Under the pieces are notes generated by a model. That model did no database searches, was not told the DNA's origin, and saw only the letters and a list, made by a program, of their open reading frames with translations. The translations under genes and the position numbers were made by a program. A DNA stretch of 62,914 bases, the filler included, from Stramenopiles sp. TOSAG23-3 (taxonomy: Eukaryota): the NCBI GenBank assembly GCA_900128585.1. It is 19 parts of 19 records of this genome, joined end to end, with 100 filler letters (N's around TTAATTAATTAA, not from the genome) between each part and the next. Parts side by side here need not be neighbours in the genome. Positions count along the whole stretch, not along the records: positions 26,590 to 29,805 come from LT644352.1; 18 more parts are not named here. One strand, given 5' to 3'. The number at the start of each line of letters is the position of its first letter. Within the stretch, counting starts at the first letter, position 1. Positions 23,846-45,653 of the stretch are shown here, piece by piece.

Positions 23846-26224
23846 TTAAGCAGTAACTTCGGCTAAATTTACTTCGGCTAACTTGTCCTTGTATGCTTGA
23901 CAATTCCTTCTGTCATGCCCCACTAGTTTGCAGAACCCACACCGGCGCGGTGCCCGGCCCGCATGGGGTTTCTTTCCGTACTCCCCCAGGTCAAGTCCTT
24001 TGTACTTCTTTGCCTGCATCCTTCTCAATTTCTTATTCCTTGGCTTCCTTTTAGGAAACCTAAGCTTCTGTTTTCGTTTTAAAAGACGGCCCTGTTCCAG
24101 CTTGGCCAGCCTCTCTTCCTGGAAAGGAGTGGGGGGTATACCCAGAGCTGTTAGCAGCGCTGAATAGAGCCCACTGAAGCCCCCCTCATTCAAAAAAAGA
24201 CAAACGGCCATAGCGCAGATATCGTACCGCACAGAATTTGGAGAGAAAAGACGCTTGTCCATCATTGCTATCATGATGAAGTTTGACGACTCTATGGCAT
24301 TGGTATTGGCCCCTGTAATGTACTTTGCAATTACCTCATCCTTTCCATGCATGTTTAAGAACTCTTCTAAAATTGGAATGCAGGGGTTTTCTGTAGTACT
24401 GGTAGACGACACGGTAGGAGAAATAGTTAGATTCTTATTTACGTTAGAATCAAAACTTCTACTTCCCATGCTGCCCTCTGTACTCTTCGTCTCTTCTGAC
24501 GGCGGTGTTGGTGGATCATGCTTCTTTCGCTTTTTCTTCTTTTTCTTCTTCTCTGGTTTTGGCAGTGGTGCAGGAAATGACACAGGAGTTAACGGAACTC
24601 GGTTCGTTCTACGCTGTTTTATTTCCCAGCAGCGACGCAACGAACAAAAACTATTCGGTTCCTGACATCTTCCTGTTAAGTGGAAAATGCACATATCTCT
24701 CAGCTGTTTCCTAGCTGTCTCCACGTCTCTATTTTTGATCATAATATCACGGAAAACTTTTGACAGATATCGTATTGCCTCCGTACTACAAGGCCAAGTA
24801 TTACGGTTCCCCTTTTTTTTGTAATGCCGCGGAAGGTCGCTCTCTTTGAACAGTTTTACAAAACTCTTTGCAATATTTTTTGCACCGTGGCGAAGGCACA
24901 GAAGTTCTTTCAGCTCAGGTGTAAACCCTGCCTCTGGGTGGGTGGCAAGATACGCTTCTTTGGCATTTTTTGCCTTGATGAAACCTGTCGTATCGTCGTC
25001 ATGAATTATGGTTACTACGTCGAGCCCAAATTCCAATAAATCAACGACAAATTGACTTAATCCTACTGGATCCATCGATCCAGCAGAGCCAGGAAAAACC
25101 TCCGTATCAAAGACCATGTCGCTGTCTTCATGTTCAAACCAATTCTTGATGTTTTTGAAGTACTTCGACCTTTTGAACCTACCTGGCAACTCACGATGAT
25201 AACTGTGAACGCCGACGCAATTCCGCGTGGGCTGTAAATCAACGCCGTCCGGCGAGAGAATTAGTCCGATGACATGTCCATCAAGACTATTCCACCCCCA
25301 TCTCTTCTGCCACCTGCCGTCTGTGGCAAGAGCAACAGGGATAGGCCTGGAAATTGGGTGGTCTGGGTGGGCTTTCTTGTAAGAGGCTATATATTCAATA
25401 ATAGCCCTTTTCACGCTCTGCCGGTGGAGCTCTTTAATTTTCGGCAAAATTACTCGTGCTTGTATTTGATCTAGAGTCGAATCGGCCGGGGTAGAGACAC
25501 CATTTAATATGTCCGTTCTACGATTAGAACTTTTGCTTCCACTAAAGGTTGAGTTTATTGCTTTGATAACATTTCTCTCAAGATATGAACGCTTTCCTAT
25601 TTTCACCTTTTTTTGTGTTTCAACGCGTCTCACAACCTCCCCAGTTGCCTTGCTCATTGCAATTAAAGATCGCGACCGAGGCTGAATTAGTACGCGAGTG
25701 CCTGGTGGTGTCAACGAGTTTAACATTTTCTCGTCCACCAGGACTTTATGTCCTTCGTGCCGTTCCTGCCAGTTGAACGTTGTCTTCGCATTTGGCGTCT
25801 CTGACATTTGACGTTTTTTTGGTTCATTGATACGGCGTCCATACCTGCTTGTTTGTTTAGGAACGTTCTCCATTTGGATTGGTTCTGCAAGGGTTTCCGT
25901 GTTTCGGAAACGTGTACTCAATTTCAAGTCTGTCTCTTCCTCGTCGCTGCTCTCTGCCTCGTCCTCAACAACCTCTCCCCCCCCCCCGTACCCACAGTGA
26001 ACACATTTTCGTTCAGTTGGGCTTTCTCCCTTTTCTCGTTGCAATGCTCTACGTGCGCACTTTATTTGTTGGCGATAAGATTTTGCACGCCTCCTCCAGT
26101 AATGAGTGCGTTCAGCACAGTTTACGTCATATTTCTTCTTCAAATCCTGAAGTAAAGAACAGCATGGACTATTGCATTCAAACGGTTGCACAGGTGTCGT
26201 CGGCAGCGTTGCCGATGCTGCCAT
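23846..26224 (-). mobile_element. DDE transposase of the Mutator-like/Kolobok group with C-terminal CCHC zinc knuckle
   Basis: ATDGRWQKR (D1), GSAGSMD, IIHDDDT (D2), CLRH (CxxH), NTNAIES (E), CGFCKLVGHDRRNC. Confidence 0.85.
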
Positions 26225-26464: not shown

Positions 26465-28035
26465 ACAACCGATTTGGCCCACTACTCCANNNNNNNNNNN
26501 NNNNNNNNNNNNNNNNNNNNNNNNNNNNNNNNNTTAATTAATTAANNNNNNNNNNNNNNNNNNNNNNNNNNNNNNNNNNNNNNNNNNNNGTGTAGTTTAG
26601 AAGAAGCCACAATATGCCTTCTATGTAAAATTGAGAAAAAAGATTAGTCATGCTATAAAGGTCTGGATAAAACTCTTGTTAATGCTTCATTGAAACTTTG
26701 TGCAAACTTCATCATCACAAATAATAATAATATTATTATTTATTAGAAAAATATAATAATTATTTTTTTATTTATTTTTTATTTTTACATTACAGTAGAC
26801 GACCATATTATTATTATTAATTTTATTTATTAAACAACATAATGACAATGATGAATAATATAATATCTATAATAATAATAATAATACTGTACTACGGTAA
26901 TAGATACTGCTATATAATTAAATTATTTTATTACAAACATCAAAGCAGAAGGTCTCTACTGCACAACAATAAAAAGCTTCTTCTTCCTTCCTCCTCCTCT
27001 TTCCTACTTCCTCCTCCTATCAAATTAATTTCAGAAAATAATTTTTATTACTGTACTGTATACTGTACTATAAAGATTATTTATTTACTTTACGATGCGT
27101 TATAGATAGCAGGGAGCGACGAATCGGTAGAGACAACATAGAAGGCACAGAGAGAGGGACTGCAAGAAGAAGCAACGAGATGAGACCGTCGTGCTGGTAA
27201 CACCACACAGCTATATTCTTGTATTTTCATCCAGGCCGAGATTTCGGCAATAATTATACATAGTGTTGCTACAGTTTAATACCCTTCGTCCCAAATTTGC
27301 GGGCATACAAAGGCCATTTAATAAATGTTTAAGGGTACAATTTACAGTATCAACTGGGCAGCAAGCCATCGTTGTTAAATAATACAACTCGACTATTGGA
27401 AGGAAAAGGAGAGATATGCTATTACTATACCTTAACAAAATATTACCAAAATTTTTGTCGTTTTCGGAATACAAAACGACCTCATGCTGTTGCAATTTGT
27501 TGGTTGGGCAGTTTCGACTTTAAAAAAAAGATGTTTTCTGTGGAACACATCGTTTTTTTTGTGCCAGGTACACAGGGTGACCAGCAGTAGAGGATTCACA
27601 GCAGTGATAGAACATTGTTAAAAAAGAAGGCAAGCAGCCTGTCGAATAAAAATACACCTATCTAAAATTTGTAATTAAATTTAGTAGTCGTCTATACAAT
27701 TTGATTCTCTATATATAATTAATTAATTTTGCTCAGAAGAAAGAAGAAAATTCGAAATTATTCTTGACTTCGATTTTCTTCAGATAGGTAATACGATATC
27801 AACAATAATACAGTACTATTAACATATAAATACGATTATTCCTAAAGAAAGATATTAGATGTCATTACGGCGTCGTCCGTCGTCCGTCGTCCGTCTTACG
27901 AAGAAGTACTGAACGGTGGTAGCAATTTTCTTCTCTTTCAAAAACCCGAAGAGTATAATAATGGGTAAAACGCTCTGCTACATAAATCAAGAATGACCAG
28001 CCACTGTTCCTCTGCAAATTGTAGACATAACCCCT

Positions 28036-29058
28036 TCACATAATCTCCGCGAGCTCGTCTTCCATGATTTCTTCCGCAGAGCGTGCGCGCTTCTTGGGTC
28101 GTTCAGATCCTTCATCGCCAGATTCGTCAGAGGAAGAATCATCGGAGGAGGAGGAATCGTCGTCCGACGACGACGATTCTGCGGCTCGTTTCGCAGTGCG
28201 CTTCGCGGCACTTTCTTCCGCCTTTTTTCTCTGTTCTTCTACCTTTTTCTCTTGTCTGATTTTCACAATCTTGTCGACGGCTTGGGCTTTGTAAAAATTT
28301 AGGGAATTGTCCCAAAACGAGTTATTCCCGTATTTTACAGTGTCCCAGCCATGGTCTGATTTTCTCTCTGGCTGAATCTTCTGTATTGCATACAATGAGA
28401 AACTACTCGGATTCTGAAAACTTTTCCCATCATACAGTATCACTCCTTCATCTGTGAGGTCACCAACTATTTCCGTTCCTTTCCAAGTAATCTTTAAGAC
28501 CCCTTTACCAGCAGCTATGGTTTTTACATCTAACATTTCTTTCAGAGTAATGCGTATATTCGTTTTCGTGCTGCCCCCCTCTTTCTCTTTCCACTCTTTA
28601 TAACAATTATCCAGCACTGGAATCAAGTACTCGAAATCACATTCTTTTAGAGCTTCTCGAATATCCGGGGCAGCGATCATCTTCCGCCCGTTCTCTTTCG
28701 TTAGGTCAATTGCGACATAAGCGATGGCCCTGGAAAAAGCCTCAAAAGACCTTGTCAGGGCTTGCTGGGCATTCTTGTCAACTGAAAAACCCTCGGGCAG
28801 TTGTTTTTCCACCAATCTCTGAACACTTGCGTTTGGCACAAGGGGCTTTACTTTCCCAGGAACCATCTCCTTGCCAGCGAAGCCGACTTCAGTAGTTTTT
28901 GGGCTTTGTTCCTCGTCTGGTTTGCTATTTTCTTCAGGTGCAGACGTGCTATTTCCCTCAGAGACAGACTCCTGCGGTGCAGAGACTGGCAGTTCAGGGG
29001 CAGAGGGTGTAGACACCGACGACTGCGTATTGGGGGGGGCAGCGACAGCAGTGCTCAT
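28036..29058 (-). CDS. NF-YB/POLE3(DPB4)-type histone-fold protein fused to a RAMA domain
   Basis: VPNASVQRLVEKQLP..RKMIAAPDIREALKECDFEYLIPVL (histone fold); ITLKEML..GDLTDEG..FQNPSSF..GWDTVKY (MPND-type RAMA). Confidence 0.8.
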   Translation of the reverse strand: MSTAVAAPPNTQSSVSTPSAPELPVSAPQESVSEGNSTSAPEENSKPDEEQSPKTTEVGFAGKEMVPGKVKPLVPNASVQRLVEKQLPEGFSVDKNAQQALTRSFEAFSRAIAYVAIDLTKENGRKMIAAPDIREALKECDFEYLIPVLDNCYKEWKEKEGGSTKTNIRITLKEMLDVKTIAAGKGVLKITWKGTEIVGDLTDEGVILYDGKSFQNPSSFSLYAIQKIQPERKSDHGWDTVKYGNNSFWDNSLNFYKAQAVDKIVKIRQEKKVEEQRKKAEESAAKRTAKRAAESSSSDDDSSSSDDSSSDESGDEGSERPKKRARSAEEIMEDELAEIM

Positions 29059-30165
29059 TGTGTGCTAGTAGTGTAGTTATATTTTCAAAAGCAAGCGGTG
29101 CGAATATCGTTCAATGGTACCAAATGCGTTAAAATTGAGATAAAAACTTGGATTGCTCTAATCTTTTTATTGGGAAAGTCAGCGCAATCTACATGATCAA
29201 ATAGAAGATATGTTATAATTGAAGCAAACAATCGAACACATCATATTTAGTATTATTATATTATTGCCCTACTATATATTATAATATATAATAATACCTT
29301 CGACGACGACGATCCGATGGAACAACAAATAAATAATAATAATAAAATTAATTATTATTATTATTTTTTATTAGACGACTATCTACACAGCAGTATTATT
29401 TTATTATTTAATTTTTTTTACTTTTTTTTTTGTTTCCTTCTGCTGTATTGTACTGTACTATTAATACATTATTTTTTAAAAATATTTTTTTAGTCGTTCT
29501 TCTTCTACCTGCTCAGCATGGCGCCAACACGACATGCTGAGCCACGACAGGGGACAGGGCCAGGAGGAGAGCAGGAGGCCAAAATAGTAGAGGAATGATG
29601 ATTATTATTTTTTTATAGTTTAGTTACTGTAATGTGTAATGGAAGAATAGAAGAACGACGACTATTAGATAAATAAAATAATAATAAAAAAAGCAAATCT
29701 TGTCCTCTCCTTCATTCCATTCATATTAATACATCATTCAGTCCTTCAAAAAAAAACAAAAAATACTAAAATATAATACAGTATCATCATCCATCACTCA
29801 CGTCTNNNNNNNNNNNNNNNNNNNNNNNNNNNNNNNNNNNNNNNNNNNNTTAATTAATTAANNNNNNNNNNNNNNNNNNNNNNNNNNNNNNNNNNNNNNN
29901 NNNNNTTATTATTATTATTATTGAATGTTATCATTTTTTCAAGCAACAAGGGCTGTACGTACGTTTTTTCGAACTCCACCCCAGCGATCGACGAAAAGGA
30001 ATGGGAAGTTTTTATAAAAAAGGAAACTGAAAAGACGATAAAGAAGGGACGGAACGTTTTCTATTTTATTCTATTATCTTCGCATTTTCGTTTCTTTCCT
30101 TCTTCATTTTTCCCGTGGGTTACGGGAGGCAACGAGGGTTTCTTTTTGTTCGATTCCTAGGAACG

Positions 30166-32682: not shown

Positions 32683-33243
32683 TCTAGTCGTCGAAGTGTG
32701 TGTATAATAATAAAATATAAACAGCAACAACAAATGGGAGGGGGTTGGAATACGTGTATGTAAATGTGCGTGTGAAAATGTTTAAAGTAAGAAAACTGAA
32801 CTCATCTGTTTGTGTGTATATATTTAGTGCACTTGATCAAGTAAAAAGAAAGAAAGAAAAGTAGTTGAATGGAGGAGAAGAAGAAGAAGAAAAGAAGGTA
32901 TATTATAATTAAATAATAATTGATTATTATTATATTATTATGTTTTAAATTAACGGCCTTGGTGCTATGTAGATGTATTAACATTGGTTTGAATTCTATT
33001 TCTTTCAATAATAAAAAATAAAAAAAAAAAATGAAAATAATAGCTAGTACATATAGTAAATAGAAGAAGAAAGGAAGAAAGAAAGAGAAGGAAGAAAGAA
33101 AGAGAAGAAAGAAAGAAAGANNNNNNNNNNNNNNNNNNNNNNNNNNNNNNNNNNNNNNNNNNNNTTAATTAATTAANNNNNNNNNNNNNNNNNNNNNNNN
33201 NNNNNNNNNNNNNNNNNNNNAACAATACAACTTCGTGTTTACA

Positions 33244-43358: not shown

Positions 43359-45653
43359 ATGGGTTTCCTAATCGACGCGACGCCGCTGACTTGGGAGCAG
43401 GCGCAACCATATTTGGAATACATACGTACCCACGGCCTTCTCCAGTTCATCAATATTTACAACAAAGTAAAAGATCGTAGGAACGATAAGCTTTTGTGGG
43501 GAGATGAGATTGAATACATGGTGCTCAGGCTTGACCCTGACAATCAAAAAGTGTGCGTTTCCCTTCGGGCGGACAAAATTATTACTCAACTCGCAGACGA
43601 AGAGGCCAAGTTGAAGAAGGAAGGGTTGTCGAGCGTTGCGTGGCACCCAGAATACGGGAACTGGATGGTCGAAGCGACGCCAAGTAGACCGTATGGAGGG
43701 TACGCAAGTGATTTGACATCTGTCGTCGAGAACATGCGGACAAGAAGGATGCGAATAAATTCGGCACTGGAGTCGAACGAAATTGCCCTTACCATAGTTG
43801 CGTTCCCTACGTTTGGAGTAGGACAGTTTACCTTTCCAGCAACAAGCCCAGGGGGTATTAGTGCGGAGTCGGACTGCGTTTCGGACCAAGTGATAAATCC
43901 GCACCCCCGATTCGGGACTTTAACTGCCAATATTCGAAAACGAAGGGGGGGGAAAGTTGACATCAAACTCCCGCTATATCAAGATACTTTTACGAACAGA
44001 AAGAACTTGGGCGAGGAGAACGGTGGTAGTCAGTTCAAGATGGATCTCGACCAACCGACGGGAACGGTTGCTTCACAGCCAGCCGCCGACGACGAAAAAA
44101 TGGCAGCAGCTGCTGCCGGGGAAGACAAAGGGAACGACGGCTCGAAGACTCTCGCCTCACCCACACAAACCCCAGCAGCAGAGAAGAACGAAGAATTTGT
44201 TTCCATGGATTGCATGGCGTTTGGTATGGGCTGTTGCTGCCTGCAGGTCACGTTCCAAGCGCGAGATATCGACGAGTCCTTGCGACTGTACGATCAGTTG
44301 GCTGTTTTGACTCCTATATTTTTGGCACTGAGTGCGGCGTGCCCAATAATGAAAGGAAAAATTGTCGATACAGACGTGAGGTGGTCAGTTATTGCAGGGT
44401 CAGTTGACGACCGGACGCCCGCTGAGAGAGGCATGGGAGAATCCAGAGGTGGAACCGTTGCTGGCACTGGCACGAGGCCTATCCGCAAGTCAAGGTATGA
44501 CTCCATTGATTCCTTCATTTCCCAGAACAAATTCTTCCATGAAAAGTACAACGATCTGCAAATCGAGCTGGACGAAGATGCATTGAAGTTGCTTACGGAT
44601 GCGGGTGTACCAGCACTCTTGGCACAGCACATCGCACATTTATGGATCCGAGACCCGCTTGTCATTTACAAAGAGCGCGTTGAAATCGATGACAAGACAG
44701 AGGTGGACCATTTTGAAAATATACAGTCGACGAACTGGCAGAGCGTGCGATGGAAGCCCCCGCCGCCCACGATGGATGGTAAGGATGGAATAGGGTGGCG
44801 TGTAGAATTTCGATCTACAGAAGTTCAGCTCACAGAGTTCGAGAACGCTGCATTTTCTGTTATCATTGCCTTGGTTTCACGCGTGATTCTATTCTTCGAC
44901 TTAAACATGTACATGCCGCTGTCTAAAGTAGACGAGAATATGCAGCGGGCGCACAAGCGTGGAGCTGTTACGGACGAAGTGTTCTTCTTTCGTAACCACG
45001 TCATACCGCTGGCCGAGGAATGTGGGCAGGGCGACGATGGCAAAGCATTTCACGAAGACGTCGAAGATGCGTGCATGCCTATGACAATTGGCGAAATCCT
45101 CATGGGGAAGTCTTTCGAAGGCACAAACCACCGCTTTCCAGGGCTTTTCCCTCTAATTTATGCATACTTGGATATTATTGAGTGCGCTCCCGACACTCGA
45201 CTGAAAATCGAGAATTATTGCAACTTCTTGTACATGCGATCAACAGGGAAGTTGATGACCACGGCCACCTGGATGAGGAAATTCGTAACGTCTCATCCTT
45301 CTTACCAGAACGACTCGGTAGTTTCAGACGACATTGCGTATGACCTCATGGTGGCTTGCGCGGATATAACCAGCGGCAAAACAAAGTGCAGCGAGCTTTT
45401 CGGTGACTTTTCAATACACCCCCACCAATCTCCGAAAACGGATAGTTCTGCAAAGGGATCTGGGACAGACAATGCCCCACGCACCCCGACCCGAAAGTTA
45501 CGCGGCGCGTCATTCCGAGAAGAGGTCAAGACTATGTGGCAGTGCAATTTAATCAAGCAATTGATAGAAAAGTACTCTAGTAAGGTGGGCGATCACACGT
45601 TGGGAAGCCAGGCGGGAACATTCAAGTCGACCACTGCGTATTTGAACGTATAG
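43359..45653 (+). CDS. GCLC: Glutamate-cysteine ligase catalytic subunit (animal/fungal type)
   Basis: LLWGDEIEY, WHPEYG, HPRFGTLTANIR, MDCMAFGMGCCCLQVTFQ, KSRYDS, HFENIQSTNWQ, GWRVEFR. Confidence 0.97.
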   Translation: MGFLIDATPLTWEQAQPYLEYIRTHGLLQFINIYNKVKDRRNDKLLWGDEIEYMVLRLDPDNQKVCVSLRADKIITQLADEEAKLKKEGLSSVAWHPEYGNWMVEATPSRPYGGYASDLTSVVENMRTRRMRINSALESNEIALTIVAFPTFGVGQFTFPATSPGGISAESDCVSDQVINPHPRFGTLTANIRKRRGGKVDIKLPLYQDTFTNRKNLGEENGGSQFKMDLDQPTGTVASQPAADDEKMAAAAAGEDKGNDGSKTLASPTQTPAAEKNEEFVSMDCMAFGMGCCCLQVTFQARDIDESLRLYDQLAVLTPIFLALSAACPIMKGKIVDTDVRWSVIAGSVDDRTPAERGMGESRGGTVAGTGTRPIRKSRYDSIDSFISQNKFFHEKYNDLQIELDEDALKLLTDAGVPALLAQHIAHLWIRDPLVIYKERVEIDDKTEVDHFENIQSTNWQSVRWKPPPPTMDGKDGIGWRVEFRSTEVQLTEFENAAFSVIIALVSRVILFFDLNMYMPLSKVDENMQRAHKRGAVTDEVFFFRNHVIPLAEECGQGDDGKAFHEDVEDACMPMTIGEILMGKSFEGTNHRFPGLFPLIYAYLDIIECAPDTRLKIENYCNFLYMRSTGKLMTTATWMRKFVTSHPSYQNDSVVSDDIAYDLMVACADITSGKTKCSELFGDFSIHPHQSPKTDSSAKGSGTDNAPRTPTRKLRGASFREEVKTMWQCNLIKQLIEKYSSKVGDHTLGSQAGTFKSTTAYLNV

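Follow-up and report, generated by a model that had tools for sequence, protein, structure and literature searches.

The RAMA domain owes its name to an association with restriction enzymes and adenine methylases, and discrimination of N6-methyladenine (6mA, also written m6A) was predicted for it (Iyer et al., 2016). In eukaryotes, the same study found RAMA joined to JAB, PHD, Chromo, Tudor, Bromo, SET, BRCT, ARID, MBD, AT-hook, RING, ankyrin and DAM modules; a histone fold is absent from this main-text list, and the supplement may contain the combination. In the animal protein MPND, RAMA accompanies a JAB/MPN deubiquitinase-like domain. MPND is reported to bind double-stranded DNA (dsDNA) independently of sequence, with S113, S115 and W135 forming hydrogen bonds with the backbone, and alanine mutants of these three residues nearly abolish DNA binding (Yang et al., 2023). 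According to the same report, the MPND RAMA pulls down histones, and the acidic region that directly follows it hinders binding to DNA and favours binding to histones. The same fold occurs in CcrM, fused to a bacterial adenine methyltransferase, where it is described as a nonspecific DNA-binding domain. CHRAC-14, POLE3 and Dpb4 are H2B-like histone-fold proteins that Pol epsilon has in common with CHRAC/ISW2; POLE3-POLE4 is described as an H3-H4 chaperone and Dpb4 as a member of two complexes. Here we describe a protein in which a histone fold is fused to RAMA, a new combination of two known domains. Its gene lies in a 62,914-nt stretch of DNA (hereafter, the window) from Stramenopiles sp. TOSAG23-3 (GenBank assembly GCA_900128585.1), which consists of 19 parts of 19 records joined end to end with 100 filler N's between them; adjacent parts need not be neighbours in the genome. 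Coordinates count along the whole window, and the gene falls within the part taken from LT644352.1 (26,590 to 29,805).

The gene is a single open reading frame (ORF) of 340 codons plus stop, on the minus strand (28036-29058), which runs from ATG to stop without interruption; all features of the protein given below are on this strand. A single exon is indicated by the ORF itself, by contigs that align to it without joints and by the relatives described below, whose single tblastn segments run across both domains. An initial annotation, made from the sequence alone, had read the locus as an H2B-like histone fold followed by a RAMA domain and a Ser/Asp-rich tail. Pfam and structure comparison show that these domain calls and their order were correct; both domains exceed the curated profile cut-offs, and the blocks lie where they had been placed, with LVPNASV starting at 28842, ITLKEML starting at 28551 and HGWDTVKY ending at 28330.

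The RAMA domain spans residues 168-263 (28270-28557). It matches Pfam PF18755 with an E-value of 2.1e-16 and a score of 60.2 bits against a cut-off of 35.2 (residues 157-260, profile positions 6-101 of 107), and in a sequence search against solved structures, MPND (7ydt_A) was recovered at 2.4e-8 over residues 163-246. An AlphaFold2 model of the 340-residue protein, built from an 82-row alignment, has a mean predicted local distance difference test score (pLDDT) of 78.3, with 182 residues at 90 or above, and shows a β-rich RAMA fold at residues 172-252 with pLDDT of ~86-98. The top Foldseek match of this fold is MPND 7ydw_A (E-value 3e-7, template modelling score 0.85, root mean square deviation [rmsd] 1.1 Å), and the CcrM methyltransferase follows at 9e-3. 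Upon realignment, the MPND-DNA structure (7ydw_A) superimposes over 89 residues with a Z-score of 15.8, rmsd of 1.2 Å and 34% identity, and the C-terminal domain of CcrM (6pbd_A), likewise over 89 residues, with a Z-score of 11.8, rmsd of 2.5 Å and 12% identity. The second block is thus a true RAMA domain, and MPND is its closest solved relative (33-34% identity across 7ydt and 7ydw). In CcrM, the shared fold serves an enzyme rather than a histone-like module.

By sequence alignment, the counterparts of MPND S113, S115 and W135 are N216, S218 and W238; two of the three DNA-contact residues are kept, and the third is changed from Ser to Asn. In an alignment of 11 family sequences, S218 and W238 do not vary, and N, T, S or A occupies position 216. 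A comparison of eight full-length natural variants shows no change at any of the 98 positions in residues 166-263 and changes at six of the 100 positions in residues 66-165, most of them within the L2 loop of the fold described below. The conserved contact residues together with the tight constraint make dsDNA binding by this RAMA a plausible proposition. The variants in and near the L2 loop (residues 123-132; 28663-28692) are T120M, M127T, A129V and P131T/A; K71R also occurs, and two of these changes are present in contigs from RNA libraries as well, at 28668 and 28673.

The histone fold occupies residues 74-160 (28579-28839). It matches the Pfam profile CBFD_NFYB_HMF (PF00808) at residues 74-137 with an E-value of 3.2e-6 and 27.8 bits against a cut-off of 21.4 (profile positions 3-65 of 65). 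In the model, α1 (76-86), α2 (95-122), α3 (130-139) and αC (143-160) are predicted with pLDDT of ~86-97 and give the arrangement α1-L1-α2-L2-α3 plus an αC of the H2B/NF-YB type, and a linker of ~10 residues joins αC to RAMA. Residues N123, R125 and D132 are invariant across the 11 aligned family sequences. Structure realignment gave Z-scores of 11.8 for NF-YB, 11.4 for CHRAC-14, 11.4 for Dpb4, 10.8 for NC2-beta and ~10 for H2B, with a range of 10.3-11.8 over the NF-YB, CHRAC-14, Dpb4 and NC2-beta chains, and Foldseek returned CHRAC-14, NF-YB and Dpb4 at ~1e-4. Given such similar scores across the H2B-like classes, structure confirms both folds of the protein but cannot choose among the classes. 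In the sequence search against solved structures, Drosophila CHRAC-14 (2byk_B) matched residues 74-156 at 5.2e-9, ahead of the next class by more than four orders of magnitude, with NF-YB from 1.9e-4, Schizosaccharomyces pombe Dpb4 at 0.015 and an NC2-beta-type chain at 0.055. Four further Pfam families listed for the protein, DUF755, YxzE, Nucleo_P87 and SURF2, lie on the low-complexity tail far below their cut-offs and were taken as noise.

Residues 1-65 (28864-29058) form a disordered, Ser/Pro/Glu-rich N-terminus with a net charge of -7, modelled without secondary structure (pLDDT 39-56) and not conserved in the family alignment. The last RAMA helix spans residues 253-295 with pLDDT of ~92-95, and its Lys/Arg-rich extension (residues 264-295; 28174-28269), with a net charge of +5 by count, is not conserved in one of the two subfamilies defined below, subfamily b. 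Then comes a disordered, acidic Ser/Asp tail (residues 296-319; 28102-28173; pLDDT <50) with a net charge of -10 and many Ser-x-x-Asp/Glu sites; 12 Ser and 10 Asp/Glu fall within the 25 residues 296-320, bearing out the tail of the initial annotation, and nine Ser/Thr-x-x-Asp/Glu sites lie within residues 291-330. An acidic tail follows RAMA in every full-length relative. The motif RPKKRAR (residues 320-326; 28081-28101) is likely a nuclear localisation signal, a role known for basic motifs of this kind; R324 does not vary, and every full-length relative has a K-K-R or K-R-A-K motif. No usable match to the 340-residue protein was obtained in the Protein Atlas, and one sequence source labels the protein merely 'histone H3/H4'.

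The fusion is real, being neither a chance ORF nor an assembly chimera. The same 340-residue protein forms a 90% identity cluster of 14 members on contigs from three sources (JGI/IMG, ENA and Logan), and all or part of the stretch is contained in 20 of the 24 sequencing runs listed, from 15 studies. At least half of the sampled words of the ORF are present in 14 DNA or unlabelled runs, and two small runs are possibly the source itself. Contigs from four RNA libraries (four studies; three of the libraries polyA or oligo-dT) were compared with positions 27700-29400 and gave 10 pieces, none with a joint. RAMA, the linker and the last part of the histone fold are all contained in a single 494-nt contig (28165-28658), and two pieces from another RNA run tile 28445-28721. 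Together, the RNA-library contigs cover 27915-29102, an approximate transcript extent for which the contigs give neither strand nor true ends, and they are consistent with one unspliced mRNA. No piece falls in the flanks 27700-27914 and 29103-29400, an absence that carries no evidential weight. That a chimeric assembly was produced, or that two neighbouring genes were read as one, might be suspected from the source, which resembles a small assembly interrupted by gaps (the window contains runs of N) and might be represented by the two small runs. However, the recurrence of the ORF in 14 cluster members and 14 runs, the domain junction crossed by RNA-library contigs and the same fusion in eight further lineages make an artefact exceedingly improbable.

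We searched exhaustively with HMMER, using residues 60-275, among 1.84 billion cluster representatives and obtained 323 matches at E ≤1e-3, of which the best 150 were listed; the counts that follow refer to these best 150 of 323. Both domains are present in seven, namely, the protein's own cluster, P0003, P0005, P0006, P0011 and the fragments P0004 and P0035. The other 143 comprise 33 proteins with the histone fold only and 110 with RAMA and no histone fold, a division based on Pfam (149 of 150) and on a histone-fold hidden Markov model of the family, which matched none of the 110. JAB is present in 16 of the latter, and zf-CW, ARID, bromodomain, Tudor or PHD domains are found in others. Several of the architectures compiled in the main text of Iyer et al. 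(2016) recur here, and their general logic, RAMA plus a chromatin-related module, is also that of the fusion protein. None of the 16 JAB-bearing proteins has a histone fold. Conversely, no JAB match was found in the fusion protein at E ≤10, and its C-terminus is a helix with a disordered acidic tail, in contrast to the architecture of MPND and MYSM1; what it shares with MPND, apart from RAMA itself, is the acidic stretch that follows and the chromatin context. Word-indexed homologue searches returned only the protein's own 90% cluster, and no relative of the fusion protein was found among viral contigs. The literature searched yielded no description of a RAMA and histone-fold combination.

A scan of metagenomes recovered eight loci, all of 1.3-3.4 kb and, hence, with little gene context; tblastn on these loci adds lineages L002 and L006/L007. 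In total, there are at least nine lineages (P0001, P0003/L001, P0004, P0005, P0011, P0006/L005/L008, P0035/L003/L004, L002 and L006/L007), with computed identities of 27-61% between them. The window's protein, P0003 and P0004 constitute subfamily a, and the other six lineages constitute subfamily b. In both subfamilies, the order is the same: histone fold, short basic linker, RAMA, acidic tail and the K-K-R or K-R-A-K motif. All lineages come from metagenomes, one of them labelled as a 0.22-3 micrometre marine fraction, and so far as these sequences go, the fusion appears limited to a small, uncultured clade of marine eukaryotes.

To place the fused histone folds among their relatives, the initial annotation had proposed a phylogeny against POLE3, NF-YB and NC2-beta. 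The tree that we obtained (90 columns and long branches; built without the two fragments and the near-identical members of the cluster) addresses this only indirectly: the fused folds group together on one side of a branch with support of 86/86 (five fused versus 33 unfused rows), but they are not nested among the unfused relatives, and the tree has no named NF-YB, NC2-beta or POLE3 rows. The branches of the fused folds are long (0.9-1.1 and 1.9 changes per column). In the RAMA tree (112 rows, none of them a short fragment), the fused rows were separated by the free search (three changes). Constraining the seven fused rows to stand together raised the log-likelihood by 40 over the free search (p-AU, approximately unbiased test, 0.969), so the split reflects a failure of the search and was rejected. 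A single origin of the fusion would fit the trees of both domains.

The class of the histone fold was further assessed with profiles. For the whole family, the solved chains rank as CHRAC-14 (2.9e-14), Dpb4 (7.1e-12), NC2-beta (2.1e-11) and NF-YB (4.3e-10), and for subfamily b as NF-YB (1.5e-7), NC2-beta (9e-7), CHRAC-14 (1.1e-6) and Dpb4 (4.5e-4), with ORP1 also within the range of 1e-7 to 1e-6. The strong matches in the Protein Data Bank are B-type chains in both subfamilies (CHRAC-14, Dpb4, NC2-beta, NF-YB and ORP1); the best H2A-type match, NF-YC3, was reached at an E-value of 0.024 with the whole-family profile only and is absent with the subfamily-b profile. The idea that the two subfamilies are an H2A-like/H2B-like pair was rejected, as subfamily b matches B-type chains only. 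In subfamily b, the Pfam signal lies below the cut-off, so the fold there rests on the alignment, on the NF-YB profile matches at ~1e-7 and on a six-row AlphaFold model of moderate confidence, which contains the same four helices followed by a confident RAMA. A Pfam match of P0006 to SidC_C, below its cut-off, was taken as noise.

These rankings bear directly on the link to POLE3 drawn in the initial annotation, which stood as to fold similarity and fell short as to orthology. The protein could be a true POLE3/Dpb4/CHRAC-14 orthologue that acquired RAMA, i.e. a subunit of Pol epsilon and of the ISWI/CHRAC remodeller acting at forks and in nucleosome sliding. Among solved histone folds, CHRAC-14, the fly counterpart of POLE3, matches the window's protein best by a wide margin (5.2e-9 versus 1.9e-4 for NF-YB), CHRAC-14 and S. 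pombe Dpb4 head the whole-family ranking, and three sampled nearest unfused relatives from separate clades (P0018, P0083 and P0084) are of the CHRAC-14 class, with E-values of 1e-25, 1.6e-21 and 2.3e-16, Dpb4 or NF-YB being next. An acidic C-terminal tail is also found in POLE3-type proteins, and in structure alignments, the fusion protein is 31-33% identical to CHRAC-14, with an αC of the H2B type shared by the CHRAC-14/POLE3 (CHRAC-17)/Dpb4 group. However, besides the added RAMA, the fused folds are much more divergent: they stand outside all 33 unfused relatives on their long branches, and the sampled unfused proteins match CHRAC-14 more strongly than the fused protein does, by 7 to 17 orders of magnitude, the class labels covering these 3 of the 33 and leaving 30 unlabelled. 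Furthermore, NC2-beta is nearly level with Dpb4 in the whole-family profile, and in subfamily b, CHRAC-14 drops below both NF-YB and NC2-beta. We therefore regard orthology as doubtful. The fold is H2B-like and most similar to the POLE3/CHRAC-14/Dpb4 group, yet far more divergent than ordinary members of that group; rather than an orthologue of POLE3/Dpb4, the protein seems more likely to be a paralogue with divergence postdating the fusion.

The protein might instead be a transcription-factor subunit. An NF-YB- or NC2-beta (Dr1)-like subunit would act at promoters with an NF-YC- or NC2-alpha-like partner, RAMA providing an added DNA anchor. Both proteins belong to the same Pfam family, share the structural tie with CHRAC-14 and Dpb4, are the top histone-fold matches of subfamily b and, in the case of NC2-beta, almost equal Dpb4 in the whole-family profile. 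NF-YB cores are generally very strongly conserved across eukaryotes; conservation of this order is not seen in the fusion protein, which is just 20-25% identical to solved NF-YB chains, with a best E-value 4-5 orders of magnitude weaker than that of CHRAC-14. Human NC2-beta is absent from the matches of the window's protein at E ≤1, the chain matched at 0.055 being a microsporidian-type homologue. A transcription-factor subunit of this kind is, accordingly, a distinctly unlikely identity.

The reading that we prefer, with a probability of roughly 0.6, is that of a nuclear subunit of a histone-fold dimer which would carry its own dsDNA- and histone-binding RAMA module. H2B-like folds pair with H2A-like partners. 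The divergent H2B-like fold of this putative chromatin protein, in an uncultured marine microbial eukaryote, could not stand alone and would pair head-to-tail with an H2A-like partner encoded elsewhere; the resulting H2A-H2B-like dimer would sit on DNA without sequence preference. RAMA, tethered by ~10 residues at the end of αC, may then, like that of MPND, contact the dsDNA backbone as a second point of attachment and possibly also bind histones. The acidic Ser/Asp tail, which is probably phosphorylated, may temper DNA binding and favour basic histones, and the basic motif may direct nuclear entry. The succession of basic helix (+5), acidic tail (-10) and RPKKRAR fits a nuclear protein with self-tuned DNA binding, as in MPND.

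Several observations weigh against a nuclear dimer subunit of this kind. No H2A-like partner is encoded in the window, where none of the 30 other large ORFs and 59 small ORFs has a histone-fold match. The Pfam score of the histone fold is modest (27.8 bits), and relatives lie under the PF00808 cut-off (18 bits for P0003 and 21.3 bits for L002), show weak 'Histone' matches only (P0005 and P0011) or have no Pfam histone-fold match (P0006); in the subfamily-b model, the fold has pLDDT of 54-79. The mutual placement of the two domains is left uncertain by the model of the window's protein (predicted template modelling score 0.51), the findings on MPND concern a single animal protein, the RAMA of which shares 33-34% identity with that described here, and RNA-library contigs are not in themselves proof of transcription.

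Whether RAMA reads 6mA, as put forward in the initial annotation, is a separate matter, compatible with either view of the histone fold. The label '6mA reader' denotes a hypothesis about RAMA that is contested in the literature and not an established property. In pull-downs, the MPND RAMA was reported to be selective for a 6mA-containing duplex, and the RAMA of MYSM1 was not (Kweon, 2019). Yang et al. (2023) report that 6mA was without effect on dsDNA binding by MPND, the crystal complex showing contacts with the backbone and none with the bases, and according to a 2024 paper, a preference for methylated DNA again could not be confirmed. More recently, AMT1-dependent 6mA in linker DNA, next to active promoters, was described as widespread in unicellular eukaryotes, with readers named as key (Nat Genet, 2025). 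A specific reader, for example of methylated ApT in linker DNA, which would recruit or place the histone-fold dimer, would be in line with the association by which the domain was defined, with the MPND pull-downs, with the spread of linker 6mA among protists and with the invariance of RAMA across the eight variants. The backbone-only contacts of MPND, the behaviour of MYSM1 and the nonspecific binding ascribed to the CcrM domain speak against it, as does the absence of a methyltransferase among the 30 other large and 59 small ORFs of the window. On balance, 6mA reading by the fusion protein appears unlikely, a possibility unsupported by the best structural data on MPND. The narrower proposal of a replication or remodeller subunit of the POLE3/CHRAC-14 type, the RAMA of which reads methylated or hemimethylated linker adenine, is more improbable still.

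RAMA is one of few candidate 6mA reader domains, and MPND, by our account the only eukaryotic example tested, has given conflicting results; the fusion protein, which is small, soluble-looking and encoded without introns, is a simple second test case. It is also a candidate in the question of 6mA readers in protists, a question of which the key premise is contested. Were it a 6mA-reading POLE3-type subunit, 6mA in these marine protists would be wired directly to nucleosome spacing or to the recycling of parental histones at the fork, and unicellular eukaryotes would have their first dedicated reader of the mark, one that is itself histone-like. If RAMA does not read methylation, a histone-fold subunit that carries a second DNA-binding domain of its own would still represent an unusual design for a histone-like dimer.

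In subfamily b, a conserved N-terminal peptide, (E)GVDGSGGVGGFA[A/K]PPM, is present in five of the six lineages, all those with the N-terminus present (L002 is incomplete); it was seen at L004:1709-2812, L007:536-1609 and L008:2-1111 and in the proteins P0005, P0011, P0178 and P0189. A low-complexity, otherwise unconserved stretch follows the peptide. In L008, where a stop codon precedes the motif by 24 codons and no ATG comes ahead of it, the true start or an upstream exon is in question, and in the window's protein, there is only a faint echo of the peptide at residues 56-66. In two lineages of subfamily b, the tail-to-tail neighbour of the fusion gene is a histone-binding WD40 gene of the RBBP4/CAF-1 subunit C type (CAF1C_H4-bd plus WD40), the ORFs of which are L005:1011-3029, L006:1088-2802 and L007:1782-2870, all on the minus strand and split into two to three ORFs, presumably by introns. 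No gene of this type is present in the window, and the adjacency may be plain synteny.

The window itself is ordinary gene-dense eukaryotic DNA with ~45% G+C and AT-rich spacers, in which Rfam identified no RNA gene. Its genes encode, among others, a CCT subunit, a calcium-dependent-type kinase, CK2-beta, Sar1, tubulin cofactor C, eIF3c, a glutamate-cysteine ligase and a cytochrome c haem lyase. Runs of N near 29.9 kb, 36.45 kb and 39.77 kb, which appear as X in translated ORFs, were read as scaffold gaps. Subunit C of eIF3 is encoded in two plus-strand ORFs (33235-34386 and 34692-36482) that align, one after the other, with positions 5-250 and 317-588 of the eIF-3c_N profile, which points to an intron or frame break of ~300 nt between them; the second ORF enters a run of N. 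A 792-residue ORF on the minus strand (23846-26224), downstream of the fusion gene along the window, matches the Mutator-like transposase family PF20700 with 30 bits against a cut-off of 26.5, carries a C-terminal CCHC-like motif and looks like a domesticated or active Mutator-like element. On the plus strand, a 1049-residue ORF (36654-39803), which ends at a run of N, combines a DSPc dual-specificity phosphatase with an NLI/FCP1-like phosphatase (NIF), and a 658-residue ORF (59729-61705) combines a lipid desaturase (PF10520) with cytochrome b561. Land plants and green algae generally use a glutamate-cysteine ligase of the GCS2 type, which, if right, would argue against a green-algal origin of the window, as the ligase encoded here (43359-45653, plus strand) is of the PF03074 (GCS) type, with a 280-residue N-terminal extension.

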